A DNA stretch of 64,000 nt from Anaerolineales bacterium (GTDB taxonomy: Bacteria; Chloroflexota; Anaerolineae; Anaerolineales; DRKV01). A program made the position numbers and the translations under genes. Shown piece after piece: positions 19,107 to 54,145 of the stretch. Positions within the stretch are counted from its first letter, which is position 1. The number at the start of each line of letters is the position of its first letter. Where the stretch lies: the NCBI GenBank assembly GCA_024763355.1, contig JANTFR010000001.1, positions 6,259 to 70,258 of the forward strand, read 5' to 3'. The notes beneath the pieces are model-generated. The model did not search any database and was not told the DNA's origin. It worked only from the letters and a program-made list of their open reading frames with translations.

Positions 19107-19300
19107 TGGTTCATCGGTTGCATTGGTTGCATTGGTTGCGTTGGTTGCATTGGTTGCATTGGTCGGATTGGTCGGATTGGTCAGGTAGTCGCCTGGTCGG
19201 GTAGTCTGTCGTCCGCCGTCCGTGGTCCGTGGTCTGTCGTCCGTCGCACGCCGCACGCCGCACGGTCTACCGTCCACCGTCTACGGTCCGTTGTCCGTCG
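19096..19300 (-). repeat. Micro-repeat array filling the whole spacer from the helicase-like stop to the GT4 start (about 14 x 7-mer, then about 10 x 9-mer)
   Basis: Minus-strand reading: GACGACGGACAACGGACC GTAGACGGTGGACGGTAGACC GTGCGGC GTGCGGC GTGCGAC GGACGACAGACCACGGACCACGG... CTACCCGACC..CTACCTGACC AATCCGACC x2 AATGCAACC x5-6, with the ATG inside the last units. Heptamer phase is constant 19206-19296; 9-mer phase 19098-19187. Confidence 0.9.
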
Positions 19301-21436
19301 TCAGTTTCCTGTCTCCATCAAAATGCGCGCCAGGGCGCGGAAGAGAGGGCCGCGCTGTTCGTAGCCCTGTTCGTTGAGTTCGCTGATGCCCAGGTAGATG
19401 CCTTTGCGGCAGCGGCGTACCAGCCCCAGCGCCAGACGCGCCAGGGTCTCGCGGTTGGTGTCGGCTTCGTCGAAATCCGTCCACGGGCGGCCAAATTCCC
19501 ACCGGCGGTTGAGGATGTAGGGATGGGTGAGAGGTTGGGCGATGCGGGTGAACCACTGCATGCTGCCGATGTCCAGCCAGAATTGGTAGTCCACGGCGCG
19601 GTTTTGCATCAGGAAGGTGTACGCCGGGGAGAGGAAGACGGCATCCGCCTCCGGCGACTGCCAGCGGCCCAGGTATTGGGCGGCAATCACGCCGTCCTCC
19701 ACCATGCGGAGGTATTCCTTTCCCACCGGCACGCCTTCGGCTTCCAGCACATCCCCCACCGCCCAGCGGAATTTGCGCACAGATTCCACCAGCATGGCCG
19801 CGGTTTGGGCGGCGTCGTAATCGCTGTGGAAGCCGTACCCCGGCTGGGAGAGCACCTCCCCGAACAGGCGGCGAATGAAGTGGTCGAGGGGCTGCGGCGC
19901 GCCGTCCTGATAAACTACCAGCCATTGGCGCAGGTTTTCGTAGGCCATCCCCAGACGGTAGGTAATCCGTTCGCGGGCGGCTTCCTCCAGGTTCTCGAAA
20001 GGCGTCAGGCGGGGACCTTCCGGGCCGAGGCGGTAGACGATGTCAGTCAGGAGGCGGGCGCGCACCAGGTCCATCGCCTCGATGGACTGCATGAGAGCGG
20101 CGCTGAAGTCGAAGGCGGCGGGATAGATGCCCCAATCGGGGTGCGCCAGGGCAGCCAGGGTCAGGAGGGAGCGGGTGGCGGGTTCTTCCCGCAGGGCGCG
20201 GGAGGGGCGGTGAGAGCGCGTCGGGAGGCCGGCATCTTCCAGGCGCGTCGTCAGGGCAAAGCGCAGCGAATCGATCAGGAAGGGGGCCAGGACGACAATC
20301 TCCCCGGGGGGGACTCCATCATCCACCAGGGCGGCGATTTGCTCCGTGACCCAGTCGAGCATCTGGGGGTAGTAGCGCAAATCGGGGGGGTAGGCAAGGT
20401 AACGGGAGACGCTCCCCCTCCGAATGGGGGGAGGCGGTTCTTTGGGGTCTGCATCCCCCTCCGAGGGGGGGCGGAGGCGCACCCAATGGGCGAGATGTTC
20501 CCCCAAATCGAGCAATTCACCGGGGGTAACGTGCGATTCCGAAAAGCGCACCGTTTCCCCGCACAGTTCCGCCAGGGGGAGCATACTTTGGGGGTCGGCA
20601 CCCAGGAAACGGCGGTATCCGGCTTCTTCGTCGAAAATCAGGAGGGCGCTCTCGAAATCGGGCAGCCATTCGGAGAGCAGGTCGGCCACGAGAGGCGGGT
20701 TTTCTTCCAGGTTGTCGGCAATCAGGTGGCGGTAGGTGTCCTGAAGGTACTCGCGGCACAGGGGCGTATCCCACAGGTGGCGGCGAAAGACCTCCAGTTG
20801 GAGGGAGAAGTCGAGCAGGTTGTGCTCCAGGCAAAAGCGGCGGAAGTCGTCTATGCAGGTTTGCGTCTCGTCGAAGATGTGGGCGTGACCGCTTTCCACG
20901 GGCCAGGAGGCTTTGAGGCGCCGGGAGACCTCGGCGAGGGGATAGGCGTTGAAGGCGGCTTTGTTGAGGTTATCGACCAACTGGCTATAGAGGCGATTGC
21001 GGCTGATGGTCAGGCCGGTGAACATCCCCTCCTGCAGACGCGGACGGACGAGATGCGCCATGTAGTACTGGGCGGTCTCCAGGGTGAGGAAGACGGGGGG
21101 CAGGTCGGGGCGGGCGAAGCCGGCCTCCTCGGCCACCAGGGGCCAGAAGAGTTCCGTCATGCGGCGCGCCAGGCCGCCGATGGTGAGCAAATCGGGGGCA
21201 GTGCCGTTGATGACGCCGGGGGTTTGCAGCGCCAGGGTGTACGGCTCTCCCAGGGTGCGTTGCGGAACGAGGATGAGAATTTGTCCGCCGGGGATGCCCT
21301 GCGCCATGAGGTGCAGCATCCGCTCCACGCCGACGGTGGTTTTTCCGCTCCCCGCCGGCCCGCGCAGGAAGACGGCGCCGCGAGGCGGGGCTTCGATAAG
21401 GGTGCGCTGGGAGGGGGTGAGGGGGAAAGTGGGCAA
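19301..21436 (-). CDS. UvrD/Rep-like superfamily-1 helicase-related P-loop protein
   Basis: LTPSQRTLIEAPPRGAVFLRGPAGSGKTTVGVERMLHL (Walker A) and ILILVPQRT. The start is uncertain: no ATG/GTG after the repeat array, so I chose the in-frame TTG at 21436. The longer track ORF (to 21838) runs through the 8-mer array and overlaps the acd gene start. Confidence 0.6.
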   Translation of the reverse strand: MPTFPLTPSQRTLIEAPPRGAVFLRGPAGSGKTTVGVERMLHLMAQGIPGGQILILVPQRTLGEPYTLALQTPGVINGTAPDLLTIGGLARRMTELFWPLVAEEAGFARPDLPPVFLTLETAQYYMAHLVRPRLQEGMFTGLTISRNRLYSQLVDNLNKAAFNAYPLAEVSRRLKASWPVESGHAHIFDETQTCIDDFRRFCLEHNLLDFSLQLEVFRRHLWDTPLCREYLQDTYRHLIADNLEENPPLVADLLSEWLPDFESALLIFDEEAGYRRFLGADPQSMLPLAELCGETVRFSESHVTPGELLDLGEHLAHWVRLRPPSEGDADPKEPPPPIRRGSVSRYLAYPPDLRYYPQMLDWVTEQIAALVDDGVPPGEIVVLAPFLIDSLRFALTTRLEDAGLPTRSHRPSRALREEPATRSLLTLAALAHPDWGIYPAAFDFSAALMQSIEAMDLVRARLLTDIVYRLGPEGPRLTPFENLEEAARERITYRLGMAYENLRQWLVVYQDGAPQPLDHFIRRLFGEVLSQPGYGFHSDYDAAQTAAMLVESVRKFRWAVGDVLEAEGVPVGKEYLRMVEDGVIAAQYLGRWQSPEADAVFLSPAYTFLMQNRAVDYQFWLDIGSMQWFTRIAQPLTHPYILNRRWEFGRPWTDFDEADTNRETLARLALGLVRRCRKGIYLGISELNEQGYEQRGPLFRALARILMETGN

Positions 21437-21470
21437 GGGGGAAGTTGGGAGGGAGTGAAGTGGAAGCGGA
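21403..21470 (-). repeat. Pyrimidine-rich CCACTT-family leader repeats at the helicase-like gene start
   Basis: Minus strand: CCGCTTCCACTTCACTCCCTCCCAACTTCCCCCTTGCCCACTTTCCCCCTCACCCCC. Shares CCCACTT(T/G)C cores with 30846-30905 and 46274-46321. Confidence 0.7.
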
Positions 21471-21499
21471 TGACGGGCGTAGACGGAGGACGACAGACC

Positions 21500-21587
21500 G
21501 ATGAACCGATGAACCGATGAACCGATGAACCGATGAACCGATGAACCGATGAACCGATGAACCGATGAACCGATGAACCGATGAACC
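21500..21587 (+). repeat. Perfect tandem array, 11 x GATGAACC
   Basis: 88 nt with no mismatch, preceded by GATGACGGGCGTAGACGGAGGACGACAGACC. Lies in the divergent spacer upstream of the acd promoter. Confidence 0.95.
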
Positions 21588-21645
21588 AATTGTAACCCAA
21601 ACCAAAGGGGGAAGAATGACACTTTCCACAGGCAGGCCTCGCGGC

Positions 21646-21651
21646 TATAAT
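21646..21651 (+). promoter_or_regulatory. Candidate -10 box (TATAAT) for the acyl-CoA dehydrogenase gene
   Basis: GGCTATAATGG 38 nt upstream of ATG 21690, followed by SD GAAGGAGAA. The -35 is poor (TTCCAC). Confidence 0.45.
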
Positions 21652-21689
21652 GGCGCACAAGGTCTATCGTTTGACGAAGGAGAACATTC

Positions 21690-22904
21690 ATGGATTTCAA
21701 CCTGTCCGAAGAGCATCGCATGGTGCAAAAAATGGTACACGACTTCGCCCAACGGGAAGTCGCTCCCATCATCAAAGAGTGGGACCGCAAACAGGATATG
21801 GCCCCCTTCATCCTGCCGCGCATGGGGGAACTGGGCATCCTGGGGATTTGTATTCCGGTCCGCTACGGAGGCGCGGGGATGGATTACGTCTCCCTGGGGC
21901 TGGCCTGCGAGGAACTGGAAGCGGTGGACACCACCCTGCGGGTGGTCATGTCCGTCCACACGGGGCTGTGCAGCATGACTCTGCTGCAATGGGGCAGCGA
22001 GGAGCAGAAGCAAAAATTCCTCGTGCCGCTGGCAAAAGGCGAAAAAATCGGCTGCGGGGCTTTCACCGAACCGGGAGCAGGCTCCGATTTCGCCCACATT
22101 CGCGGCAGCGCCCGCCGCGAAGGGGATTACTACATCCTGAACGGCGAGAAAATGTGGATTTCGCTGGCGAACAAGGCCGATTACGCCATGGTGACAATGC
22201 GTACCAATCCCAATGCAGAGAAAGCCAGCCGCGGCCTGACCTCCTTCATCGTGGATTTGCACAGTCCCGGCGTGACCCGCGGCGACATCCACGGGAAACT
22301 GGGGGTGCGCGCCGGCTCAACGGGCTGGATTCACTTCCAGGATGTGCGCGTCCCCGCGGAAAATCGCATTGGCGAGGAGGGCGAGGGCTTCAAAATCACG
22401 ATGTCGGCTTTCGACAACGGGCGTTACACCGTAGCCGCCGGCGCCACCGGCCTCATTCGTGCCGCGCTGGAGGAAAGCGTCAAATACGCCCGCGAGCGGC
22501 AGGCCTTCGGCAGCCCTATTGCCCAGCACCAACTCATCCAGGCAAAAATCGCCCGCATGGCAGTGGATTACGAGGCAGCGCGCCTGCTCTACCTGCAAGC
22601 CGGCTGGATGAAAAACGCGGGCAGCCGCAACACGCGGCAAACCTCGGCGGCCAAGTGGTTCGCCACGGATGCGTCCTTCGAGGCGGCCAGCGAGGCGGTG
22701 CAAATTCACGGGGGTTACGGCTTCAGCGACGAATACAACGTGGAACGCTACCTGCGGAATTCCAAAGGCGCGGTAATTTACGAGGGCAGCAACGAGATTC
22801 AGCGTCTCATCCAGGCCAGTTACGCCCTCGGATGGCGCACCGACAAACCCCTGCGCCGCGAACTTCCGCCTTACGACCCCGATTTCTGGCAGGAAGAAGC
22901 CTGA
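21690..22904 (+). CDS. Acyl-CoA dehydrogenase
   Basis: 404 aa: [53 protein letters not shown] (C-terminal catalytic Glu region). Followed by etfBA. Confidence 0.9.
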
Positions 22905-29040: not shown

Positions 29041-30177
29041 TTAAACGCGCCCGGAAGTATCCTCTCCCGACCTTGCCGCGGGCAGCCACACGCGGAAGGT
29101 CGTGCCTTCTTCCGGGCGGGTCTCAAACGTGAGACGGCCTCCTTGTAAACGCGCCAGCATTTGGGCGACGCTCAACCCCAGCCCCCATCCGGGATGGTCG
29201 CGCACCCGCTGGTCCTCCGAGCGGAAAAATTGCTCGAAGACGCGGGGAGCATCCTCTTCAGCGATGCCCATGCCGGTATCCTCCACAATGAAGGTTACGC
29301 CCTCCCCATCCTCCTGCGCCGTGAGGCGGATGTTACCGCCCTCCGGGGTATAGAGCACCGCGTTGCGCAGCAAAATCGTCAAGATTTCCGCAGCCCGCCC
29401 CGCATCGGCCTGCAAGCGCGGCAGGTCAGCGGGGATGTCTTGTTCGAGGTGCTGCTTGCGTTCCACCGCAATGTCCTCCACAGCGAGAAGCCCCTTTCGG
29501 GCAACTTCGGCGGGCGCAACCGCCGCGATTTGCAGTTTCAGACGGCCTTCTTCCGCCTTCGAGAGGTCGGAAAGGTTGGCAATCAGGCGCGACATGCGTT
29601 CCACGTTGTTGCGGATGACGCCCAGGAAGTTGGTCTGCATTTCGTTGACTTCTCCGGCCATGCCCTTGAGCATCAGGTCAGTGTAGCCCTTGATAGAAGT
29701 CATCGGCAGGCGCAACTCGTGGGAAATCACCGAGACGTAAGCAGATTTTTCTTTGCGGGCGCGCTCGTAGGCCGTTTTCCAGCGCCGTTTTTCGTAGAGG
29801 AGCCCGACAATTGTGCCGAAGGTCTCCGCCAGGGTGCGCCCGGCTTCGCCGAGGGGATGCCCGGCCTCCAGATACAGACGCCCTTCCGGCGGCTCCTGCA
29901 TGGAGAGCAGGAGGACGCCCAAGGGCATTTCCCGCTCCCCAGAGAGCAGGGCCTCCCAATGCGGAATATCGCCGGTGGAGAAAGGCGCACCCTCGGCGGT
30001 GAGGCCCACTTCCAGGGGCGGAGATTTCTCATCCATAGCGGGAGCCACAAAAAGGGCGCGGCTTCCCCCGGTACTCTTCAACAGGCGGCGCAGTCCTTCT
30101 CTCAGGGAAATTTCCAGGGGTTCGTCCTCCTGCGGGAGGCGGTTCCAGGTTTGCAAAGCGCGCAAAATCGTATTCAT
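29041..30177 (-). CDS. Sensor histidine kinase (GAF-like N-domain + HisKA + HATPase_c), cytoplasmic
   Basis: H-box YVSVISHELRLPMTSIKGYTDLM, N-box LLRNAVLYTP, G1 VEDTGMGI, G2 GWGLGLSVAQ. Confidence 0.85.
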   Translation of the reverse strand: MNTILRALQTWNRLPQEDEPLEISLREGLRRLLKSTGGSRALFVAPAMDEKSPPLEVGLTAEGAPFSTGDIPHWEALLSGEREMPLGVLLLSMQEPPEGRLYLEAGHPLGEAGRTLAETFGTIVGLLYEKRRWKTAYERARKEKSAYVSVISHELRLPMTSIKGYTDLMLKGMAGEVNEMQTNFLGVIRNNVERMSRLIANLSDLSKAEEGRLKLQIAAVAPAEVARKGLLAVEDIAVERKQHLEQDIPADLPRLQADAGRAAEILTILLRNAVLYTPEGGNIRLTAQEDGEGVTFIVEDTGMGIAEEDAPRVFEQFFRSEDQRVRDHPGWGLGLSVAQMLARLQGGRLTFETRPEEGTTFRVWLPAARSGEDTSGRV

Positions 30178-30180
30178 GGG

Positions 30181-30843
30181 TCATTCGCTTTCGGTAGTCT
30201 GCGCCGCATAAGGACACACATCCCGCAAGGGGCAGGCGGCGCAACGGGGGCGGCGGGCGGTGCAAATCTCCCGTCCCAGGCGGATGAGGTTGAGATGGGC
30301 GGCGTAATAGGCGTCGGGAGGGAATTGTTTCTCCAGGTAGGCGTGCGCTTTTTCTACGCTCATCTTTGGCGGGCGCAGCCCCAGGCGTCCGGTGACGCGA
30401 TAGACGTGCGTGTCCACCGGAAAAGCGGGCATCCCCAGCGAAAAGCACATCACGATGGCTGCCGTCTTGGGGCCGACCCCTTTGAAGCGGGTCAGCCAGG
30501 CGCGCACATCTTCGGGCGGCAGTTCCCGCAGGAAATCCAAATCCAGGGTTCCCCGCTCGGCGGTGATTTGCCGCAAGACGCCCTGAATGCGCGGCCCTTT
30601 CTGGTTTGCCAGCCCCGCCACGCGGATGGCAGCGATGACGTCCTCCTCAGGCGCATCGCGCACGGCCTCCCAGGTGGGGTAGCGCTTCCGGAGCGCATCA
30701 AAGGCCTTGTCGCGGTTGGTGTCGTTGGTGTTTTGCGAAAGGATGGTGGAAACCAGTTCATCCAGCGGAGGAAGCGGATTACGCCATTCAGGTTTGCCGT
30801 AGAATTCCAGCAAGCGGTTGTGAACTTGAAGAGCAGTGGGCAT
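30181..30843 (-). CDS. Endonuclease III-like HhH-GPD base-excision glycosylase with 4Fe-4S cluster
   Basis: HhH GVGPKTAAIVMCFSLG, catalytic region PVDTHVYRV, Cys cluster CTARRPRCAACPLRDVC. Start at the internal MPTALQVHNRL (ATG 30843). Confidence 0.8.
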   Translation of the reverse strand: MPTALQVHNRLLEFYGKPEWRNPLPPLDELVSTILSQNTNDTNRDKAFDALRKRYPTWEAVRDAPEEDVIAAIRVAGLANQKGPRIQGVLRQITAERGTLDLDFLRELPPEDVRAWLTRFKGVGPKTAAIVMCFSLGMPAFPVDTHVYRVTGRLGLRPPKMSVEKAHAYLEKQFPPDAYYAAHLNLIRLGREICTARRPRCAACPLRDVCPYAAQTTESE

Positions 30844-30845
30844 GG

Positions 30846-30905
30846 GGGAAAAATTTGCAAGCAGACAAGTGGGGAAGTGGGAAAGTAGGCAAGTTTGCAA
30901 GTGAG
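30846..30905 (-). repeat. CCACTT-family pyrimidine-rich leader repeats abutting the endonuclease III-like start codon
   Basis: Minus strand: CTCTCACTTGCAAACTTGCCTACTTTCCCACTTCCCCACTTGTCTGCTTGCAAATTTTTCCCC-ATG. CACTTGCAAACTT is identical to 46276-46288. Confidence 0.85.
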
Positions 30906-30942
30906 AGCGGGGCGCGGAGGCTGTGCTTTATGGCGGGTTCGT

Positions 30943-30991
30943 CATTCCGCATTCACCATTTTGCACTCTGCATTCCGCATTCTGCATTTTC
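30943..30991. repeat. 7 x heptamer array CATTNNG (minus strand CNNAATG / GAATGCG-type), abutting the asparaginase stop codon
   Basis: CATTCCG CATTCAC CATTTTG CACTCTG CATTCCG CATTCTG CATTTTC in constant 7-nt phase. Confidence 0.9.
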
Positions 30992-35255: not shown

Positions 35256-35292
35256 ATACTCTGTTTTATAGAGTATCTGTTTTGTAGAGTAT
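35256..35292. promoter_or_regulatory. Candidate operator: tandem 16-mers CTGTTTTATAGAGTAT / CTGTTTTGTAGAGTAT plus inverted half-site ATACTCT
   Basis: Two adjacent 16-bp units (15/16 identical) at 35261-35292. ATACTCT (35256-62) is the reverse complement of AGAGTAT in both units. AT-rich spacer about 120 nt upstream of the kinase ATG (35139, minus strand). Confidence 0.4.
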
Positions 35293-35365
35293 AGCATATT
35301 TACCCCCGTAAAGATGTTGCTAAAATGTGACGGGTACGCGTCTCCATCGCGAAAAAGGGAGCGTC

Positions 35366-37556: not shown

Positions 37557-37606
37557 TTCGTGCCCATTCGTGTTTCTTCGTGTCCATTCGTGGACATTCG
37601 TGGACA
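37557..37606 (+). repeat. 5 x decamer array TTCGTGNNCA directly upstream of the pcrA -10 box
   Basis: TTCGTGCCCA TTCGTGTTTC TTCGTGTCCA TTCGTGGACA TTCGTGGACA, then CGTGC-TATAAT. Confidence 0.9.
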
Positions 37607-37611
37607 CGTGC

Positions 37612-37617
37612 TATAAT
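37612..37617 (+). promoter_or_regulatory. -10 box TATAAT 9 nt upstream of the pcrA ATG (near-leaderless transcript predicted)
   Basis: GCTATAATCACCGCGCTATG; no SD is possible in the 9-nt gap. Confidence 0.5.
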
Positions 37618-37626
37618 CACCGCGCT

Positions 37627-39798: not shown

Positions 39799-40296
39799 AT
39801 GTCTCCCGTCCTGCCTCCCAACGCCCTGGAAGTCATCAGCCACAGCGCCGAACAGACCCGCCGCGTAGGTGTGCGCCTGGGAACTTTGCTGCAAGCCGGC
39901 GACCTGATTTGTCTCCACGGCGACCTGGGCACGGGCAAGACGACCTTCGTGCAAGGCGTGGCCCGCGGCTGGGGCGCATACGACCCGGTGACCAGCCCGA
40001 CTTTTGTGCTCATCAACGTCTATCGCCGCACCGATGGCGGACAATTGTTCCACGTGGATGCCTACCGTCTCAGCGGCCCGCAAGAAGCCTGGGACCTCGA
40101 CCTGGATGCCTATCTGGAGCGCGGCCCCCTGGTGGTGGAGTGGGCGGAGCGCATTGACGAGGCCCTCCCCGCCGAGCGTCTAGACGTGGCCTTCACCTGG
40201 CGGGACGACACGCAACGCGACTTGCTTCTCACCGCCCGCGGCTCGCATTACGAAACCCTGCTCACCGAACTCCGTCGCCGCACCTTTGGGAGGTAG
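39799..40296 (+). CDS. tsaE: tRNA t6A37 biosynthesis ATPase TsaE
   Basis: LHGDLGTGKTTFVQGVARG and SPTFVLINVY, characteristic of TsaE/YjeE. Confidence 0.85.
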   Translation: MSPVLPPNALEVISHSAEQTRRVGVRLGTLLQAGDLICLHGDLGTGKTTFVQGVARGWGAYDPVTSPTFVLINVYRRTDGGQLFHVDAYRLSGPQEAWDLDLDAYLERGPLVVEWAERIDEALPAERLDVAFTWRDDTQRDLLLTARGSHYETLLTELRRRTFGR

Positions 40297-40416
40297 ACGA
40301 CAGACCACAGACCACGGACGACAGACGACAGACCGCGGACGACGGGCGACAAACCACGCGACCACCCGACCACCCGACTACCTGACCACGCGACTACCCG
40401 ACCACCCGACTACCTC
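40297..40416 (+). repeat. Micro-repeat array filling the entire tsaE-tsaB spacer (9 x 7-mer GACSACR, then 7 x 8-mer CNGACYAC)
   Basis: GACGACA GACCACA GACCACG GACGACA GACGACA GACCGCG GACGACG GGCGACA AACCACG, then CGACCAC CCGACCAC CCGACTAC CTGACCAC GCGACTAC CCGACCAC CCGACTAC CTCCC-ATG. Confidence 0.9.
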
Positions 40417-40418
40417 CC

Positions 40419-41087
40419 ATGCTCCTTGCCCTCGACACATCCACCCGTTATAGCGGCATCGCCCTGTACGCAGAGGGGCGCGTCCTGCTGGAGCACACCT
40501 GGCAGAGCGCCCACTACCACACCCGCCACCTGGCCCCGGCGGTGGAGGGAGCCTTGTCCATAGTCGGGGCGCAGCCCGCCGACCTGAAGGGCATCGTTGT
40601 GGCGCTCGGCCCCGGCTCCTTCACCGGACTGCGTATCGGGCTGGCATTCGGCAAAGGGCTGGCGCTGGCGCGGCACATCCCGATTGTCGGCATCTCCACC
40701 CTGGATTTCCTCGCCGCCGCCCAGATGCCCTCGGAATTGCCTCTCCTGGCAGTTTTGCGGGCCGGCAGAGGACGCTACTCCCTGGGCGAATATCGCTGGG
40801 AGAATGGGGGCTGGCATCCCGCCGGCGCTTTGAGCGTTCTCACCCTCCCGGAACTGACCCGGCGCGCCCAATCTCCCTGCGTGATATGCGGGGAATTTCC
40901 GCCAGAAGCGCGTCAAACCTTGCGGAAGGAAGCCCCGCAAGCGCGGCTGGTCTCTCCGGCCGCATCCCTGCGCCGCCCGGCCTACCTCGCCGAACTCGGC
41001 TGGCAGCGCCTCCGGAACGGCGAACGCGACGACCCCGTGACCCTCGCCCCCATCTACCTGCACTTCCCGACCGCGGGCAAAGGATGA
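40419..41087 (+). CDS. tsaB: tRNA t6A37 biosynthesis protein TsaB
   Basis: MLLALDTSTRYSGIALY... and VVALGPGSFTGLRIGLAFGKGLA. Confidence 0.85.
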   Translation: MLLALDTSTRYSGIALYAEGRVLLEHTWQSAHYHTRHLAPAVEGALSIVGAQPADLKGIVVALGPGSFTGLRIGLAFGKGLALARHIPIVGISTLDFLAAAQMPSELPLLAVLRAGRGRYSLGEYRWENGGWHPAGALSVLTLPELTRRAQSPCVICGEFPPEARQTLRKEAPQARLVSPAASLRRPAYLAELGWQRLRNGERDDPVTLAPIYLHFPTAGKG

Positions 41088-41109
41088 TGGACAATAGGCG
41101 GTGGACGGT

Positions 41110-41181
41110 GAACCAATGCAACCGATACAACCGATGTAACCAATGCAACCAATGCAACCAATCCAACCGATGCAACCACCT
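41110..41181 (+). repeat. 8 x 9-mer array (C/G/T)AACC(A/G)AT(G/A/C) in the tsaB-rimI spacer
   Basis: GAACCAATG CAACCGATA CAACCGATG TAACCAATG CAACCAATG CAACCAATC CAACCGATG CAACCACCT, preceded by GGCGGTGGACGGT. Contains several in-frame ATGs. Confidence 0.9.
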
Positions 41182-41199
41182 CCCCCCACCATCCGCCCC

Positions 41200-41688
41200 A
41201 TGACCGTCGAAGACATTCCGCAAGTGATGGCGGTGGACGAAGCCTCCTTCGCCATGCCCTGGCCGGAGCACGCTTACAAATTCGAGGTGCTGGAGAATCG
41301 CGTCTCCGTCGCCCTGGTAGCCGAAGCGCCGGAGAGCGGCCAGGTCATTGGTATGGTGGTGGTATGGGTCTTGCTCGACGAAGCGCACATCGCCACCATT
41401 GGCGTTCATCCCGCCTGGCGTCGCCGCGGCCTGGGAAGGCTACTGCTGGCCTCCGCTCTCATCGAGAGCATTCGGCGCGGGGCGACGACGGCAACCCTGG
41501 AAGTGCGGGTCAGCAACGAACCGGCTCAGGCGCTCTATCGCCAGTTCGGATTCGAGGTAGTGGGACGCCGACCCCGCTACTACAACGATAACAACGAAGA
41601 CGCCCTCCTGATGACCGCTTCCTCGCTGGACGAAACCTTCCTGCGCCAACAAACGGAGGCCCTGCCCTCCTCGATGGACTTTCGGTAG
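41200..41688 (+). CDS. rimI: Ribosomal-protein-alanine N-acetyltransferase (GNAT)
   Basis: IRPMTVEDIPQVMAVDEASF and the acetyl-CoA motif VHPAWRRRGLGRLLL. The start is ambiguous: in-frame ATGs at 41143, 41152, 41170 and 41200, the first three inside the repeat array. Confidence 0.75.
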   Translation: MTVEDIPQVMAVDEASFAMPWPEHAYKFEVLENRVSVALVAEAPESGQVIGMVVVWVLLDEAHIATIGVHPAWRRRGLGRLLLASALIESIRRGATTATLEVRVSNEPAQALYRQFGFEVVGRRPRYYNDNNEDALLMTASSLDETFLRQQTEALPSSMDFR

Positions 41689-42358: not shown

Positions 42359-42384
42359 GGAGACGCCGGGCGACAATGCCCTGT

Positions 42385-42452
42385 GAACCAATGAACCAAT
42401 GCAACTAATGCAACCGATGCAACTAATGAACTAATGAACTAACCAACCAATG
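42385..42452 (+). repeat. 8-/9-mer array (G/C)AAC(C/T)AATG running into the dehydrogenase start codon
   Basis: GAACCAATG AACCAATG CAACTAATG CAACCGATG CAACTAATG AACTAATG AACTAACC AACCAATG-AACCAA. The ATG at 42450 is part of the last unit. Confidence 0.9.
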
Positions 42453-43763
42453 AACCAAACTACGCTCCTCTCCAAAATCCAATCCAAAGACCTGCGCATC
42501 GTCGTGCTCGGCATGGGATACGTTGGCCTGCCGCTAGCGATGGTCTTTGCCGAGGCCGGTTTCGACGTCACCGGCGTTGACCCCATCGAAGAAAAAGTCG
42601 CCCGCCTCAATCGCGGCGAGAGTTACGTCAAGGATGTCCCCTCGGAGCAGGTCGCCCGCTGGGTGCAGGCCGGCACTTTTCGCGCCACCGCCGATTTCTC
42701 CGTCATCCGGGAGGCTGACGCGGTCAGCATCTGCGTCCCTACCCCGTTGCGGAAGACCGGCGACCCCGATTTGTCATTCATCATCTCGGCCACGGACGAA
42801 CTGGCGCGCTACGTCCACCCCGGCATGGTAGTCGTCCTGGAATCCACCACCTACCCCGGCACCACCCGCGAGATTCTGCTCCCCAAACTGGAAGCATCTG
42901 CCAATTTGAAAGTGGGCGAAAACTTCTTCCTGGCCTTCTCCCCGGAGCGCGTCGACCCCGGACGCGAGGACTGGACGACGGTCAACACCCCCAAAGTGAT
43001 GGGCGGCATCACCCCCGCCTGCACCGAAGTGGCCTCCGCCTGGTACGGACAGGCCATCCAGACCGTCGTGCCGGTCACTTCCGCCGAGGTAGCCGAAATG
43101 GCAAAACTGCTCGAAAACACCTTCCGGATGATAAACATCGGGCTGGTCAACGAACTGGCGCTGATGTGCGACCGTCTGGGCGTGGACGTGTGGGAAGTCA
43201 TTGAAGCCGCGGCCACCAAACCCTTCGGCTTCATGAAGTTCACCCCAGGCCCCGGCCTGGGCGGGCACTGCATCCCCATTGACCCGCTCTACCTCTCGTG
43301 GAAACTGCGCTCCCTCAACTACACCGCCAAATTCATCGAACTGGCATCCGAAATCAACACCGGCATGCCGCGCTACGTGGTCGGCAAGGTGCAGGACGCC
43401 CTCAACGAACATCGCAAACCGCTCAAAGGCAGCCGCGTGCTCGTTTTGGGGGCGGCTTACAAGCCCGATATTGACGACCTGCGCGAATCTCCCGCCCTGG
43501 ATGTGATTGGTCTCCTGGCGCAGAAGGGCGCCGAGGTCTCTTACCACGACCCCTACATCCCCCACTTCCGGCACGACGGCTTCACCATGCGCTCGGTGGA
43601 CGACCTGATGGAGGCGGTACACGCCGCCGACTGCGTGGTGATTGTCACCAACCACAGCGACTACGATTACGCCGCCATTCTGGAAAACGCCCGCCTCATC
43701 GTGGATACCCGCAACGCCCTCGGCCCCGCCGGGCGCAACAACCCCAAAGTAATCCGTCTCTGA
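42450..43763 (+). CDS. Nucleotide-sugar dehydrogenase (UDP-GlcNAc/ManNAc 6-dehydrogenase, WbpA/WecC-like)
   Basis: IVVLGMGYVGLPLAMVFAEAG, ICVPTPL, SPERVDPG, GLGGHCIPIDP. Confidence 0.85.
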   Translation: MNQTTLLSKIQSKDLRIVVLGMGYVGLPLAMVFAEAGFDVTGVDPIEEKVARLNRGESYVKDVPSEQVARWVQAGTFRATADFSVIREADAVSICVPTPLRKTGDPDLSFIISATDELARYVHPGMVVVLESTTYPGTTREILLPKLEASANLKVGENFFLAFSPERVDPGREDWTTVNTPKVMGGITPACTEVASAWYGQAIQTVVPVTSAEVAEMAKLLENTFRMINIGLVNELALMCDRLGVDVWEVIEAAATKPFGFMKFTPGPGLGGHCIPIDPLYLSWKLRSLNYTAKFIELASEINTGMPRYVVGKVQDALNEHRKPLKGSRVLVLGAAYKPDIDDLRESPALDVIGLLAQKGAEVSYHDPYIPHFRHDGFTMRSVDDLMEAVHAADCVVIVTNHSDYDYAAILENARLIVDTRNALGPAGRNNPKVIRL

Positions 43764-43767
43764 CCCC

Positions 43768-43872
43768 CCGTCACCCACCGCCCACCGCCCACCGTCAGCC
43801 CTTCAGCCGTCAGGCGTCAGGCATCAGCTACCGTCCACCGTCTACCATCAACCCTTCACCATTCAGCCACTC
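43768..43872 (+). repeat. About 15 x heptamer array (CCCACCG / GTCAGGC / ACCGTCY / ACCMTTC families) filling the dehydrogenase-epimerase spacer
   Basis: CCCGTCA CCCACCG CCCACCG CCCACCG TCAGCCC TTCAGCC GTCAGGC GTCAGGC ATCAGCT ACCGTCC ACCGTCT ACCATCA ACCCTTC ACCATTC AGCCACT. The complement of 43764-43790 fits a G3+N4 x4 quadruplex pattern. Confidence 0.9.
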
Positions 43873-43885
43873 TCCGGAGTTTTCC

Positions 43886-44863
43886 ATGTCCCGATATCTT
43901 CTCACTGGCGCCGCTGGCTTCATCGCCGCCCGCACGGGCGAAATGCTGCTCGAAAACGGCCACACCGTCTTTGGCGTGGACAACATCAACGACGCCTACG
44001 ACGTCCGTATGAAGCAGCACCGTCTGGAAAAACTGCAAACCTACCCCAATTTCACCTTCCGGCGGATGGATATCGCCGACAAGGAAGATGTCCTCTCCCT
44101 GGCGGAGCAGGCCCCCTTCGATGCGGTCATCAACCTGGCCGCCCGCGCCGGGGTGCGCGCCAGCGTCCAAAATCCCTGGGTGTACGTGGATACCAACCTG
44201 ACCGGCACCCTCAACCTGCTGGAGCTCAGCCAGCGCGCCGGCATCCCTAAATTCATCCTGGCCTCCACTTCCAGCATCTACGGGCAGGACGCCCCCCTCC
44301 CCACCCCGGAAACCGCCGACAGCAGCCGCCCTCTCCAGCCCTACGCGGCCAGCAAGAAGGCCGCCGAAGCCATGAGCCACGCCTATCACTACCTGTACGG
44401 CATTGACGTCAGCGTGGTGCGTTTCTTCACCGTCTACGGCCCGGCGGGACGCCCCGATATGTCCGTCTTCCGCTTCATCCGCTGGATTAGCGAGGGCGAA
44501 CCCCTGCACCTCAACGGGGACGGCAGCCAGTCCCGCGGCTTCACCTACGTGGACGACATCGCCCGCGGCGTGGTTCTCGCCCTCCAGCCGGTGGGCTACG
44601 AGATTTTCAACCTCGGCGGGCACGAAAACCTCACCATCAAAGAACTCATCGAGCGCATCGAGGCCCTCACGGGGCGCAAAGCGAACATCGTGCAGCACCC
44701 CTTTCCCCAGGCGGATATGAAAGCCAACCTGGCCGACATCAGCAAGGCGGGAAAGATGCTGGGCTGGGAGCCGGGCGTCAGCCTGGATGAGGGCCTGCGC
44801 CGCACGGTGGCATGGTACAACGAAAACCGCGCCTGGGCGAAGGAACTCTCGCTCAATGTTTGA
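43886..44863 (+). CDS. NAD-dependent sugar-nucleotide epimerase/dehydratase (UDP-glucuronate 4-epimerase-like)
   Basis: LLTGAAGFIAARTGEMLL (GxxGxxG) and YAASKKAAE (YxxxK). Confidence 0.85.
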   Translation: MSRYLLTGAAGFIAARTGEMLLENGHTVFGVDNINDAYDVRMKQHRLEKLQTYPNFTFRRMDIADKEDVLSLAEQAPFDAVINLAARAGVRASVQNPWVYVDTNLTGTLNLLELSQRAGIPKFILASTSSIYGQDAPLPTPETADSSRPLQPYAASKKAAEAMSHAYHYLYGIDVSVVRFFTVYGPAGRPDMSVFRFIRWISEGEPLHLNGDGSQSRGFTYVDDIARGVVLALQPVGYEIFNLGGHENLTIKELIERIEALTGRKANIVQHPFPQADMKANLADISKAGKMLGWEPGVSLDEGLRRTVAWYNENRAWAKELSLNV

Positions 44864-44946
44864 CCACGGATGACGGACCACGGACGACGGACGACTGACC
44901 GCGGACGACGGATGCCCCGCACGTCGCGCTCCGCACCCCGCACCCA
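44862..44946 (+). repeat. Heptamer array (GACSACG x7, then CCGCAC-type units) filling the epimerase-flippase spacer
   Basis: GACCACG GATGACG GACCACG GACGACG GACGACT GACCGCG GACGACG GATGCCC CGCACGT CGCGCTC CGCACCC CGCACCC-ATAC-GTG. Confidence 0.9.
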
Positions 44947-46251: not shown

Positions 46252-46321
46252 CGTACCACGTACCTCGTACTTGCCCACTTGCAAACTTTCCACTTGCTCA
46301 CTTTCCCACTTGCAAACTTTC
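46252..46321 (+). repeat. CGTACYN x3, then 3 x about 16-mer CCACTTGCAAACTTTC-family repeats abutting the GT4 start codon
   Basis: CGTACCA CGTACCT CGTACTT GCCCACTTGCAAACTTTC CACTTGCTCACTTTC CCACTTGCAAACTTTC CTC-ATG. Confidence 0.9.
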
Positions 46322-46324
46322 CTC

Positions 46325-47485: not shown

Positions 47486-47606
47486 CAGATTGACAAAACG
47501 CGCAAATGCCTGATGTATTCACCCAGAGACGCGGCGAGCACAGAGTTTCCTTGATGTTTTGTGGCGATTTCCCGTGTTCTCCGTGGCTCCGTGTGCCACA
47601 AACGGG

Positions 47607-48220: not shown

Positions 48221-48250
48221 CCACGAATGGTCACGAATGAGCACGAATAG
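48221..48250 (-). repeat. 3 x decamer (minus strand CATTCGTGNN), same TTCGTG family as 37557-37606, facing the LOG gene
   Basis: Plus strand CCACGAATGG TCACGAATGA GCACGAATAG; minus strand reads CTATTCGTGC TCATTCGTGA CCATTCGTGG just upstream of the SD. Confidence 0.85.
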
Positions 48251-48257
48251 CATCAAC

Positions 48258-48313
48258 GCACTTGGCACTTGGCACTTGACACGTGATACATGATACGTGA
48301 TACGTGACACGTG
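48258..48313 (+). repeat. 8 x heptamer array (GCACTTG x3, then AYACRTG x5) upstream of the TPR gene promoter
   Basis: GCACTTG GCACTTG GCACTTG ACACGTG ATACATG ATACGTG ATACGTG ACACGTG in constant phase. Confidence 0.9.
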
Positions 48314-48331
48314 ATTATACCCCTCGGCAGG

Positions 48332-52195: not shown

Positions 52196-52204
52196 ACGGT
52201 GGAT

Positions 52205-52239
52205 AGTGCGGAGTGCGGAGTGCGGGGTGCGACGTGCGG
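52205..52239 (+). repeat. 5 x heptamer array (A/G/C)GTGCG(G/A)
   Basis: AGTGCGG AGTGCGG AGTGCGG GGTGCGA CGTGCGG, preceded by GGACGGTAGACGGTGGAT, which starts inside the acpS 3' end and spans its stop codon. Confidence 0.9.
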
Positions 52240-52270
52240 TAGACTACCTGACCACCCGCCCCTGACTAAT

Positions 52271-52450
52271 CCGACCAATTCGACCAATCCGACCACTTCG
52301 ACCAATCCGACCACTTCGACCACTCCGACCACTCCGACCACTCTGACCAATCAGACCACTTCGACCACTTCGACCACTCCGACCAATCAGACCACTTCGA
52401 CCACCCCGACCAATTCGACCAATCAGACCACTCCGACCAATCAGACCAAC
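52271..52450 (+). repeat. 20 x 9-mer array, consensus YNGACCAMT, ending 6 nt before the HerA-like ATG
   Basis: CCGACCAAT TCGACCAAT CCGACCACT TCGACCAAT CCGACCACT TCGACCACT CCGACCACT CCGACCACT CTGACCAAT CAGACCACT TCGACCACT TCGACCACT CCGACCAAT CAGACCACT TCGACCACC CCGACCAAT TCGACCAAT CAGACCACT CCGACCAAT CAGACCAAC. Confidence 0.95.
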
Positions 52451-52456
52451 CGACCC

Positions 52457-54145
52457 ATGAACCAACTCGCCTACATCATCGGCGGGGGACTGAAAGAGAA
52501 CTTTCGCGCCCGCCTCAACGTCTCACCGCAGGAAGTACAGGAGGGGGCTTTTGTCGTCATCGAGAGCGGGGAATGGCTGTTCTACGGGCTAGTCACCGAC
52601 ATCCAGTTGGGGGCCACCGACCCTCGTTTTGCGGATGAGCAAACCGAAGACCGCCTGCCCCCCGTGCTGGCGCGCGCCCTCCACGGGCAGACCCTCTACA
52701 CCAATCTGGAAATTCTGCCCGCCCTGATGCTGGAACGCGGTCCGCAGGAGGAGGCGGCATTTGCCCGCTGGCTGGATGAAATCGAGAGCGGCTTGCGGGA
52801 GAAGCCGCGCCCCATGCCGGTCAAGACCGTCCCGCCGCACCACGCGCCCGTGCGCCTGGCAACCGAGGGCGACATCGCCGAAATTTTCGGCAAGGCCGAG
52901 AAGAGCAACTTCGTCATCGGGCACACCCGCGAGCAGGGACATCCTGTGCGCGTCAACCTGGAGAAGTTCGTCCAGCGTTCCGCCGGCATCTTCGGGGCCA
53001 CCGGCACGGGCAAATCCTTTCTGACGCGTCTCGTCCTGGCGGGGTTGATGAAGCACAACGTGGCCTCCGTGCTGGTCTTCGACATGCACAACGAATACGG
53101 CTTCGACGACACCGCCTCGGATACGGGAGCGCGGGTCGTCGGGCTGCGTACCAAATTCCGGAGCAAGGTGCGCGTCGTCGGGCTGGGGGCGGGAGCCACC
53201 ATCCGGGGGCAGGTTCCCGATTTCAACCTGGAAATCCCGATGAGCGCCATCCGCCCGGCGGATATCGAGATGCTGACGCGGGAACTCAATCTCAAAGAGA
53301 CCACCCCTACCACGCTGGAAGCCCTGGTGCATACCTTCGGGGCGCAGGGCTGGTTCAAGGCCTTCAAGGAAATGACCACCGAAGTGTGGACGGAGGAGGA
53401 AACAGGCAAGAAATTCCCCGCGCCGGGCAGCGTGGCAGCCTGGGCCAACAAGCACGGCGTCAACGTGATGGCTGCCGAGGGGCTGCACAGCAAATTGCGC
53501 CGCCTGTTCAACAAACCCTACATCGTGGAAAACCCCGCCAGCGACGGCATCGCCGAGGTGATTAAGGCCCTGGAGGCCGGGCAGCACGTCATCCTCTCCT
53601 TCGGTAAACACGAGAGCGACCTGGATTACCTCCTGGTCAGTAACCTGCTGACCCGACACATCCGCGAGCGCTGGGAGCAGACCACCAACCGCTTCCGCAC
53701 CCACGGAGAGCAGGAGCCGCGTCCACTGGTGATTGCCGTCGAGGAGGCCCACAAACTGCTCAATCGCGAGATGGCCGCCCAGACGACTTTCAGCACGATT
53801 GCCCGCGAACTGCGCAAGTACTACGTCACCCTGCTGATTATTGACCAGCGCCCCTCGCAGATTTACGACGAGGTCATGTCCCAACTGGGGACGCGCATCT
53901 CCGGCTGGCTGGGGGACGAGGACGACATCCGGGCGGTGCTCTCCGGCCTGGCAGGACGGGATGCCCTGCGGGGGATGCTGGCGCGTTTGCAGCCCAAGGA
54001 GGAAGTCCTGCTCCTGGGGTGGGGCGTCCCCATGCCGCTGCCGGTGCGCTCCCGCCGCTACGACGATGCCTTTTGGAAGGAATTACTGGGGGGGAAAAGC
54101 GGGGGAGATACGGTGGGGAAAACGATAAAGGAATTAGGGTTCTAA
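52457..54145 (+). CDS. HerA/FtsK-like (DUF87-type) P-loop ATPase
   Basis: Walker A GIFGATGTGKSFLTRLVLAG, Walker B-like PLVIAVEEAHKLL, YYVTLLIIDQRPSQI. Start at MNQLAYIIGGG (ATG 52457); the track ORF start at 52199 reads through the repeat array. Confidence 0.75.
   Translation: MNQLAYIIGGGLKENFRARLNVSPQEVQEGAFVVIESGEWLFYGLVTDIQLGATDPRFADEQTEDRLPPVLARALHGQTLYTNLEILPALMLERGPQEEAAFARWLDEIESGLREKPRPMPVKTVPPHHAPVRLATEGDIAEIFGKAEKSNFVIGHTREQGHPVRVNLEKFVQRSAGIFGATGTGKSFLTRLVLAGLMKHNVASVLVFDMHNEYGFDDTASDTGARVVGLRTKFRSKVRVVGLGAGATIRGQVPDFNLEIPMSAIRPADIEMLTRELNLKETTPTTLEALVHTFGAQGWFKAFKEMTTEVWTEEETGKKFPAPGSVAAWANKHGVNVMAAEGLHSKLRRLFNKPYIVENPASDGIAEVIKALEAGQHVILSFGKHESDLDYLLVSNLLTRHIRERWEQTTNRFRTHGEQEPRPLVIAVEEAHKLLNREMAAQTTFSTIARELRKYYVTLLIIDQRPSQIYDEVMSQLGTRISGWLGDEDDIRAVLSGLAGRDALRGMLARLQPKEEVLLLGWGVPMPLPVRSRRYDDAFWKELLGGKSGGDTVGKTIKELGF

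Follow-up and report, generated by a model that had tools for sequence, protein, structure and literature searches.

Tandem micro-repeat arrays filling the tsaE-tsaB and tsaB-rimI spacers of an Anaerolineales bacterium: census, variation among relatives and possible origin

Introduction

Why are both intercistronic spacers of a normally compact operon, tsaE-tsaB-rimI, filled with tandem repeats of 7 to 9 nt, and how are the genes that follow them expressed? The question is raised by a 64,000-nt stretch of DNA from an Anaerolineales bacterium (assembly GCA_024763355.1, contig JANTFR010000001.1, positions 6,259 to 70,258), which was analysed as a whole and is hereafter called the window. A preliminary description of this locus had taken the arrays to be insertions into a conserved operon, which must either tolerate read-through transcription or provide new internal expression signals. 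Based on the window and its relatives, both spacers are best read as local cases of a lineage-wide proliferation of 7-9-nt-unit repeats in one Anaerolineae genus. We put at roughly 55% the explanation that the arrays result from the slippage-driven expansion of native, C-rich intercistronic linkers, are co-transcribed, and have been filtered for an unstructured start region. Of the two options, read-through transcription would thus be the favoured one.

The operon and the repeat content of its spacers

The genes and repeats of the operon, as delimited in the window, are listed below.

39799-40296, plus strand: tsaE coding sequence, 165 aa with a TAG stop (from the list of open reading frames, ORFs; the orthologue in the relative L051 matches Pfam TsaE)
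40296-40358, plus strand: stop-proximal heptamer array of spacer 1, nine GACSACR-type units with a 21-nt super-period (Tandem Repeats Finder, TRF)
40359-40414, plus strand: start-proximal octamer array of spacer 1, seven CGACYACC units, then TCCC and the tsaB ATG
40419-41087, plus strand: tsaB coding sequence, 222 aa (PF00814; homologues named TsaB in several sources)
41086-41110, plus strand: degenerate stop-proximal heptamers of spacer 2, about three units (GATGGAC, AATAGGC, GGTGGAC), then GGTG
41111-41182, plus strand: nonamer array AACCRATGC of spacer 2, seven good units and one degenerate
41143-41688, plus strand: longest reading frame of rimI, a GNAT acetyltransferase

Matches to tsaE were found with tblastn in 44 relatives, and the start of tsaB (MLLALDTST) is kept across all relatives. 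As for the rimI product, its best matches among solved structures are the RimI entries 5isv and 2cnm (E. coli and Salmonella). The order tsaE-tsaB-rimI, with the three genes adjacent and co-directional, occurs at 33 of 50 Chloroflexota loci and in all six close relatives, the loci without the full order mostly missing one flank and lying in many cases at a contig end. Over 44 Chloroflexota loci, the tsaE-tsaB gap has a median of 11 nt and is of 50 nt or less in 34, so that the operon is indeed normally compact, as the preliminary description had it; the long gaps found among distant Chloroflexota loci hold non-repetitive, palindromic sequence.

Spacer 1 (40297-40418, 122 nt) is composed of 36 A, 55 C, 26 G and 5 T. 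Its heptamer array starts on the last base of the tsaE stop codon (G40296) and reads GACGACA, GACCACA, GACCACG, GACGACA, GACGACA, GACCGCG, GACGACG, GGCGACA and AACCACG, of which six are exact copies of GACSACR and three depart from it by one base. The octamers that follow are, in order, CGACCACC, CGACCACC, CGACTACC, TGACCACG, CGACTACC, CGACCACC and CGACTACC. With TRF, periods of 7 nt (7.9 copies) and 8 nt (7.8 copies) were obtained, together with super-periods of 21 nt (3.0 copies, 85% matches) and 32 nt (2.0 copies, 96% matches). Since the 32-nt octamer block is present twice at 96% identity, the latest growth step appears to have been a duplication of four units. The 122 nt thus consist of nine heptamers and seven octamers, as first described, with three of the heptamers one base off. 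A single ORF (40286-40453) runs through this spacer, in a frame other than that of tsaB, and owes its existence to the near absence of T from the array.

In spacer 2 (41088-41199, 112 nt), TRF delimits a 9-nt unit in 7.6 copies (41111-41178), the degenerate nonamer being AACCACCTC. About eight nonamers are present, as initially reported, but the three or so degenerate heptamers of GGACNNT type at 41086-41110, which overlap the tsaB stop codon, had been overlooked. Both spacers therefore follow one plan, in which a heptamer block opens the spacer at the stop codon and C/A-rich units lead up to the start.

An ACCTCC(C) motif was also observed in both spacers, abutting the tsaB ATG in the first (40410-40418) and lying just 3' of ATG 41170 in the second (41179-41190). 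It corresponds to the anti-Shine-Dalgarno core CCUCC itself, not to the complement of that core, and is probably a by-product of the C-rich composition.

Distribution and variation among relatives

An exact look-up of the TsaB of the window gave no record, and among species representatives its best match is 53% identical. Six closer assemblies were found via the protein database and ranked by identity over six concatenated proteins: L051 (95.8% identical to the window), L052 (91.0%), L054 (85.0%), L056 (84.2%), L057 (83.9%) and L058 (82.4%), the latter being the most distant from all other relatives. L051 and L058 originate from NCBI and L052 from ENA; L053, from Logan, and L059, a JGI metagenome contig, were also compared. 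A metagenome scan gave two short matching contigs.

The two spacers vary greatly within this set. In L051, the tsaE-tsaB spacer contains 13 heptamers and 27 octamers, vs. 9 and 7 in the window, with the edge units of the window kept, all units in perfect register and a C run before the ATG, while the tsaB-rimI spacer of this relative reaches 254 nt and holds 15 heptamers. Unit number, whose variation was raised as a question in the preliminary description, thus differs between relatives. The tsaE-tsaB spacer of L052 carries different units, of GCAAGTG type, around a non-repeat core of about 150 nt, and tsaB runs 8 nt into rimI (ATGCCTGA) in this relative, which therefore lacks a tsaB-rimI array.

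Long non-repetitive spacers were looked for in the close relatives and not seen: those of L054, L056 and L057 are short and array-free (36-57 nt between tsaE and tsaB, 28-82 nt as called between tsaB and rimI). Across the shared uvrD-to-GT4 cluster, the co-directional spacers measure 3-45 nt in L054 and L057 and at most 82 nt as called in L056, and all are C-rich; the TRF census of L054 returned zero arrays. The tsaE-tsaB spacer of L054 ends in ...CCGACCCGTACCTCTTC-ATG, which resembles a single octamer unit. For its part, L058 possesses short arrays of the same unit families in orthologous spacers, namely five to six CCGACTAC before tsaB, three ACTTGCC before the GT4 gene and CATTC-type units before tsaE. 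The seed-like unit of L054 and the short array of L058 at the same site point to the octamer array as an in-situ expansion of an ancestral linker. For the octamers, the term insertion is thus less apt than expansion, and they would not be foreign DNA.

Changes in copy number are also seen at a much finer scale. Across the aligned flanks, L059 matches L052 and L053 fully, save for a 50-nt insertion of units (CCTAACY/CGCAACY) in L059 just before the tsaB ATG, which implies a copy-number change at essentially zero background divergence. Instability was therefore found both between the window and L051 and between L059 and L052/L053. In addition, a unique 26-nt core is flanked by the same heptamer and nonamer arrays in two spacers of L051, suggesting that whole blocks are sometimes copied between spacers; this core was not found in the window with up to 3 mismatches allowed. 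Elsewhere in the Anaerolineae, arrays of 7-8-nt units are sporadic and of lower density.

Several other arrangements were noted outside the window. In L059 (880-1330), the L052-type core, the array and tsaB adjoin a divergent rplS-like gene (ribosomal protein L19) and not tsaE, which reflects either a true rearrangement breaking the tsaE-tsaB linkage or a chimeric contig. The Chloroflexota locus L019, whose TsaB is 50% identical, displays at 10632-10699 octamer arrays of GCAAGTGG and TGCAAACY/ACTTGCAA, the same unit family as at 46269-46322 in the window and in the tsaE-tsaB spacer of L052; this likeness could stem from convergence, shared function or transfer. Back-to-back inverted arrays occur in distant Anaerolineae loci, at L014 10674-10743 (GAGATTG, 6 copies, and CTCCAAT, 3.6 copies) and at L031 310-377 (CAGTAAT, then TTACTGA). 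As judged from their sequence, these would form long hairpins, unlike the non-complementary bipartite arrays of the window. In L051, the CCGTCGT array (4 copies) at 13684-13852 is complementary on the sense strand to the GGACGAC arrays (n copies) at 12157-12369 and 14831-15048; these neighbouring spacers presumably belong to one transcript, in which base pairing of the arrays across about 1.3 kb is conceivable and would enclose a cistron.

The start codon of rimI lies within the nonamer array

The in-frame ATGs at 41143, 41152 and 41170, reported earlier, are real, both in the sequence and in the ORF list. TAA 41137-41139 closes the frame upstream, so these three codons, each within the nonamer array, are the only in-frame starts 5' of ATG 41200, which had been proposed as the conserved N-terminus. 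The latter proposal was not sustained. In 45 of the 45 relatives with rimI, the frame extends 5' of the equivalent of Met-41200, with the initiator 9-13 codons upstream, and the residues T-I-R-P that precede Met-41200 in the window align to residues 3-6 (T-I-S-S/I) of RimI 5isv and 2cnm. The corresponding residues are (L)PY(V/I)VEP-M in most relatives and xRIRP-M, xRVRA-M or xxLRA-M in the closer ones, with I/V-R-P/A kept in the genus relatives. Since residues 5' of Met-41200 are conserved, ATG 41200 encodes an internal Met and the start lies within the array. The ambiguity of the rimI start, also pointed out in the preliminary description, is thus confined to the choice among the ATGs of the array, the best candidate being the following.

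41170-41688, plus strand: rimI coding sequence with the preferred start (MQPPPPTIRPMTVEDIPQV...; alternatives 41152 and 41143)

On comparative grounds, the start is most likely 41170 (MQPPPPTIRPM), which is preferred because this N-terminus matches those of L014 and L021 (MLKPPPPYRLRAM and MIQPPPPF...; MxxPPPP motif). In L051, the N-terminus of RimI, MQPTQPTQPIRPM, is made of array units, hence the array alters the first residues of RimI between close relatives. As a 9-nt period equals three codons, the nonamer array may have been absorbed into rimI, to which it would have donated a start codon and first residues. Two other genes of the window show a comparable situation: the GT4 gene at 19 kb starts with ATG-CAA-CCA within the last nonamer unit (MQPTLAVTIQRYLPLLGGME), and the N-terminus of HerA has passed from MSTDNLAQIGY... 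(L056) to MNQLAY.... (window).

Polarity, start context and RNA structure

Polarity was measured in co-directional spacers that bear arrays, in the window as well as in L051 and L052. Units beside the upstream stop codon are rich in G/A. Over the 35 nt that lead up to the start codon, the G fraction ranges from 0.00 to 0.17 and the C fraction from 0.26 to 0.63, while the first 35 nt after the stop codon have a G fraction of 0.26-0.54 in most of these spacers. Almost none of them contains a GGAG/GAGG/AGGA core in its last 20 nt; such a core is present in the array-free rimI-UDG spacer. Several unit families exist in both orientations on the sense strand (GGACGAC/GTCGTCC, GTGCGG/CCGCAC, GAATGC/GCATTC, GCAAGT/ACTTGC), with the G-rich form mostly in the half of the spacer next to the stop codon and the C-rich form in the half next to the start. 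This pattern suggests that units arise in the DNA irrespective of strand and are then filtered according to position. More generally, a Shine-Dalgarno-like core precedes 27 of the 94 genes called in six relatives, and upstream regions are C-rich even where arrays are lacking. By all appearances, C-rich and Shine-Dalgarno-poor start regions are a trait of the lineage, array-free genomes included.

The sense RNA of spacer 1 is predicted to fold at -13.3 kcal/mol per 122 nt, vs. -40 to -48 for coding stretches of equal length and -36 for the antisense. Compared with shuffled sequences, the z-scores of the two spacers (0.25 and -1.12) are not significant, so the weak structure would derive from composition and not from a designed fold. 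A specific RNA structure in the spacers was rejected on the basis of these scores, as was a stem closing the nonamer array (41097-41111/41186-41199), with a z-score of -1.1 and no conservation in L051. A search of the whole window against Rfam at gathering scores gave 0 matches.

Concerning transcription signals, no sigma-70-like promoter match was found on the sense strand of the co-directional array spacers of three genomes, and no match to a hairpin followed by a U-tract, the signature of an intrinsic terminator, on the sense strand of the array spacers of the same number of genomes. The new internal expression signals envisaged in the preliminary description thus found no counterpart. As for Rho, the seven highest C/G values among the 78-nt windows of the 16.5-kb plus-strand block all fall in array spacers (C/G up to about 5, vs. 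a median of 1.2), and YC dinucleotides are abundant and periodic in the arrays. A rut site is usually described as a stretch of untranslated RNA, some 70-80 nt or longer, that is unstructured and has far more C than G; by this description the composition is a strong fit, and the RNA is predicted to be unstructured.

Arrays across the window

The census was made with TRF, for periods of 6-10 nt and at least three copies. It gave 14 arrays totalling 1009 nt, of which 979 nt (~97%) are non-coding, in a window that is about 89% coding and 11% non-coding; the remaining 30 nt are overlaps with stop and start codons. By comparison, nine out of ten first-order Markov simulations of the window produced 0 arrays. 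Arrays are consequently not specific to the tsaE-tsaB-rimI operon, which accounts for two of at least 14 in the window, and the notion of a peculiarity of this operon has to be abandoned: in the neighbouring cluster, almost every co-directional spacer carries one. Filled co-directional spacers are found between minus-strand genes (19.1-19.3 and 30.85-30.99 kb) and between plus-strand genes (40.3, 41.1, 42.4, 43.8, 44.9, 46.3 and 52.2-52.5 kb). Three divergent promoter regions (21.5, 37.6 and 48.2-48.3 kb) also have arrays, and TRF detected none in the convergent spacer 47486-47606 of the window. The arrays other than those of the operon are as follows.

19097-19289, minus strand: composite array upstream of a GT4 glycosyltransferase gene, with heptamers GGACGRY/GTGCGGC, then CCGACCAAT, then AACCAATGC nonamers (sense)
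21497-21587, plus strand: perfect ACCGATGA array of 11.4 copies (100% identity) in a divergent spacer
30847-30991, minus strand: asparaginase-EndoIII spacer, with GAATGCR heptamers, a core, ACTTGCMM octamers and CCCCC-ATG (sense)
37557-37606, no strand assigned: TTCGTGKMCA decamers, 4.6 copies, in the divergent DUF4349/uvrD promoter region
42384-42458, plus strand: TGAACCAA/TGCAACTAA array reaching into the start of the UDP-glucose dehydrogenase (UDPGDH) gene (ATGAACCAA)
43774-43863, plus strand: CCCACCG, CCGTCAG and ACCGTCY heptamer arrays of the dehydrogenase-epimerase spacer
44862-44945, plus strand: GGACGAC-type heptamers, then CCCCGCA units, in the epimerase-polysaccharide-synthase spacer
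46252-46324, plus strand: CGTACC units, then ACTTGCMM octamers, ending at the ATG of a GT4 gene
48222-48315, no strand assigned: CACGAATGAG, GCACTTG and TGATACG arrays in the divergent LOG/TPR spacer
52205-52455, plus strand: AGTGCGG (5 copies), then TCCGACCAM (20 copies), filling the ACPS-HerA spacer

Units are shared between loci: AACCAATGC is found upstream of rimI and, on the opposite strand, upstream of the GT4 gene at 19 kb, and GGACGAC follows both tsaE and the epimerase gene. The 3' edges of the arrays lie 0-5 nt from the ATG of tsaB, GT4, HerA and UDPGDH. The ACPS-HerA junction is a 261-nt array spacer in the window (52196-52456) vs. a 4-nt overlap (ATGA) in L056 (20259-20262). The array at 21497-21587 is perfect, which implies a very recent expansion. 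It is flanked by a helicase-like gene on the minus strand and by an acyl-CoA dehydrogenase gene that starts on the plus strand at ATG 21690, and a -10-like box, GGCTATAATGG, lies on its 3' side.

Being poor in T, arrays can be free of stop codons in all frames, and the longest ORFs 17967-19277, 19301-21838 and 52199-54145 run through them. The starts of such ORFs are overextended by 60-130 codons, the offsets of the Pfam domains placing the true starts 3' of the arrays. The ORF 29161-30888 (plus strand) was considered as a gene beside an array and rejected, as Pfam and homologues indicate EndoIII on the minus strand.

Two conserved 17-mers with promoter-like features were noted in the vicinity. 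A TATAAT box stands 9 nt before the uvrD ATG (37627), in the region 37612-37626, just downstream of the TTCGTGKMCA decamer array. L051, L054, L056 and L057 share the 17-mer GCTATAATCACCGCGCT and the ATG after it without change, and L058 departs from it at 1 nt, a conservation of sequence that suggests a conserved promoter and a leaderless or near-leaderless uvrD mRNA. The other 17-mer, TAGAGTATAGCATATTT (~35285-35301), lies upstream of a GAF-PAS histidine kinase gene and is kept in L051, L054, L056 and L058; its minus-strand sequence, TGCTATACT, looks like an extended -10 box, and part of the 17-mer is tandemly duplicated in the window (TRF period 16, 35260-35292).

Comparison with known repeat systems

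The arrays belong to the known class of 5-11-nt intergenic repeat arrays, of which STRR-like and TAACTGA-like arrays are examples. The cyanobacterial short tandemly repeated repetitive sequences (STRR) are families of tandem heptamers dispersed in the intergenic regions of a filamentous lineage, with consensus families such as CCCCAGT, TTGGTCA and CAACAGT. The likeness resides in the dispersion of tandem heptamer families between genes; the host (Anaerolineae, Chloroflexota) and the unit sequences are different, and the present arrays are not STRR members. We know of no description of position-dependent polarity or of start-codon donation for STRR. Mycobacterial interspersed repetitive units (MIRUs) are intercistronic operon repeats with one orientation relative to transcription and a strain-variable copy number, whose units of about 40-100 bp contain small ORFs overlapping the flanking stop and start codons. 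Unlike them, the arrays have 7-9-nt units, and no coupling ORF design was seen, which sets them outside the MIRU type.

Long simple sequence repeats, with units of 5-11 nt among which heptamers are prominent, have been described with slippage as the proposed generator (Mrazek et al. 2007, in PMC4679880). With head-to-tail units of 7, 8 and 9 nt in 7.6-7.9 copies, the arrays of the two spacers far exceed chance length, as do these repeats. As summarised in that source, units that are multiples of three enter coding sequence, here the nonamers into rimI; the coexistence of many families, the filling of spacers from stop to start and the position-dependent G/C polarity distinguish the arrays from the repeats as summarised there. 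The closest resemblance is with the TAACTGA heptamer direct repeats of marine Beggiatoaceae, some Cyanobacteria and some Bacteroidetes (MacGregor 2015, PMC4679880), which are forward-oriented and abut start codons where Shine-Dalgarno motifs are rare, and for which a translational role was proposed (PMC4679880). The arrays share this placement (forward, start-abutting, without a recognisable Shine-Dalgarno motif), overlap the expected ribosome-binding site and precede functionally unrelated genes, some of them essential. The units themselves (GACSACR, CGACYACC, AACCRATGC) are not TAACTGA, a TTACTGA-like array being found only in the distant locus L031. Instead of one A/T-rich unit sequence, there are many, C-rich and G-poor, in a bipartite arrangement, and arrays attain 27-29 units in relatives vs. 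mostly 2-6.

Within the phylum, Chloroflexus aurantiacus has (GATAGRA)n heptamer satellites scattered through its genome, and no other bacterium of the survey has as many satellites (Subirana and Messeguer 2019, PMC6749651). The likeness lies in the phylum and in scattered heptamer-derived repeats, with one dominant family in a member of the Chloroflexia and many families in the present Anaerolineae; operon structure and start codons are not part of the analysis in PMC6749651. Finally, single-stranded CA-repeat tails strongly raise initiation through ribosome standby, with a saturation at 16-18 nt (Sterk et al. 2018, PMC5934652). Like these tails, which promote initiation with no need of Shine-Dalgarno pairing, the arrays would place single-stranded C/A-rich RNA upstream of a start, a purely functional analogy, over lengths of 50-316 nt that greatly exceed this saturation.

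No published description of such arrays in Anaerolineae was found in the literature. Three features seem new: the stop-to-start filling of operon spacers by multiple families, the position-dependent orientation of unit families, and the use of array sequence by genes for their start codons and N-terminal codons.

Origin and possible role of the arrays

According to the explanation we favour, arrays would gain and lose units through replication slippage or unequal recombination, having arisen from short seeds within linkers that were ancestrally rich in C and lacked Shine-Dalgarno motifs, and whole blocks would occasionally be copied from spacer to spacer. Arrays would be transcribed within the polycistronic mRNA, and selection on orientation and composition would keep the RNA 5' of each start G-poor and unstructured, which may suit a Shine-Dalgarno-independent (standby-type) initiation, apparently the norm in this lineage. 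Given that the standby effect levels off at 16-18 nt, array length past a few units is probably near neutral for the most part. Several points weigh against this explanation. Co-transcription and Shine-Dalgarno-independent initiation are deduced from sequence, and the promoter scan is insensitive, having also missed the evident -10 box of uvrD. The relatives are metagenome-assembled genomes or other metagenome assemblies, in which copy numbers may be imprecise, and four gene starts of the window were set partly from Pfam or homologue N-termini, so that counting the arrays as non-coding is to a small degree circular. For the G-rich stop-proximal heptamers, a derivation from ancestral spacer sequence is not evident. 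Furthermore, unit families are shared by many spacers, GCAAGTGG/ACTTGCAA occurring even in the distant L019, and sites that had arrays at the split of L058 have kept them; this recurrence and persistence could denote a sequence-specific function instead of a tolerated expansion.

Such a function is at the heart of an adaptive explanation, possible though unlikely in our estimation, in which the arrays are cis-acting, multi-site mRNA platforms for the ribosome (S1/standby) or for an RNA-binding regulator (Csp-, CsrA- or KH-like), setting or regulating the translation of each downstream cistron with copy number as a tuning knob. The strict sense-strand polarity of arrays that abut start codons, the unstructured sense RNA, the lack of Shine-Dalgarno motifs in array spacers, the occurrence of the same families in many spacers and at L019, and the presence of arrays in the same spacers since the L058 split would all agree with it, as would the experimental boost of initiation by CA-rich tails (PMC5934652) and the similar role proposed for TAACTGA repeats (PMC4679880). 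It fits poorly with the complete replacement of unit families at one orthologous spacer (L052 vs. the window), with three relatives having no arrays at all, with array lengths of 100-316 nt far above the 16-18 nt of standby saturation, and with downstream genes as unrelated as those for tRNA modification, polysaccharide synthesis and HerA; no candidate binding protein was identified. A more elaborate version, which we regard as quite improbable, is an evolvable intercistronic code, each unit family being a lineage-specific site for an RNA-binding factor or a graded platform for Rho or ribosome loading. The G-rich stop-proximal module would, for example, uncouple the upstream cistron and the C-rich start-proximal one recruit ribosomes, while a copy-number rheostat would retune operon stoichiometry and at times rewrite N-termini, leaving coding sequences untouched.

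C-rich, G-poor and unstructured RNA is also the hallmark of rut sites, where Rho would be recruited and impose a regulated polarity within operons. The seven top C/G windows of the plus-strand block, all in array spacers, the unstructured sense RNA and the abundant, periodic YC dinucleotides are in line with arrays acting as rut-like attenuators, but tsaB, which is essential in most bacteria, lies downstream of an array with no detectable promoter of its own, so that a strong termination should be deleterious, and the longer arrays of L051 still precede housekeeping genes; we hold this role to be very doubtful. About as improbable is an arrival of the arrays within small non-autonomous mobile elements targeting intercistronic sites. 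A mobile origin is plausible for the hairpin-rich core of about 150 nt that lies between GCAAGTG arrays in L052 and beside a different upstream gene in L059, and the composite block of L051 (heptamers, 26-nt core, nonamers) occupies two spacers; yet neither terminal inverted repeats nor target-site duplications nor a transposase came to light, the L051 core is not in the window, an octamer seed is visible in array-free relatives with a short array at the same site in the outgroup L058, and the gain and loss of interior units between conserved edge units fits slippage better. That the arrays divide the operon into independent transcription units, through internal promoters or terminators, is highly unlikely: spacers of 82-316 nt do leave room for signals and the arrays of divergent spacers adjoin real-looking -10 boxes (37612-37617), but the co-directional array spacers of three genomes have neither sigma-70-like matches nor hairpins with T-runs on the sense strand, no stable hairpins are predicted, and with 5 T in 122 nt spacer 1 fits neither a TATAAT-like box nor a U-tract. 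An assembly artefact or low-complexity mis-assembly is hardly credible. Short-read assemblers can miscount tandem units, but the same type of array is present in the window and in independent assemblies from NCBI, ENA, Logan and JGI, with units in perfect register and intact flanking genes. Other candidates were discarded: a phase-variable contingency locus, since the 7- and 8-nt units sit between stop and start and the coding overlap involves a frame-preserving 9-nt unit; phase variation of the promoter type, as no promoter hexamers flank the arrays; and CRISPR, iterons or coding repeats, the units being contiguous, 7-8 nt being unable to encode a repeat and no associated genes being present.

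Significance

Intergenic heptamer-type repeats (STRR, long simple sequence repeats, TAACTGA) have been known for decades, and to our knowledge no function has been established for them. The present lineage offers an unusually clean natural series, with array-free, miniature, expanded and strain-level variants at the same spacers of a housekeeping operon, which makes it testable whether such arrays have a role in co-transcription, in Rho polarity or in Shine-Dalgarno-independent initiation, or are tolerated slippage. At the practical level, T-poor arrays that are open in all frames and contain ATGs inflate ORF calls and mislead the annotation of starts, as for rimI, GT4 and HerA. Beyond annotation, arrays can genuinely remodel the N-termini of proteins.

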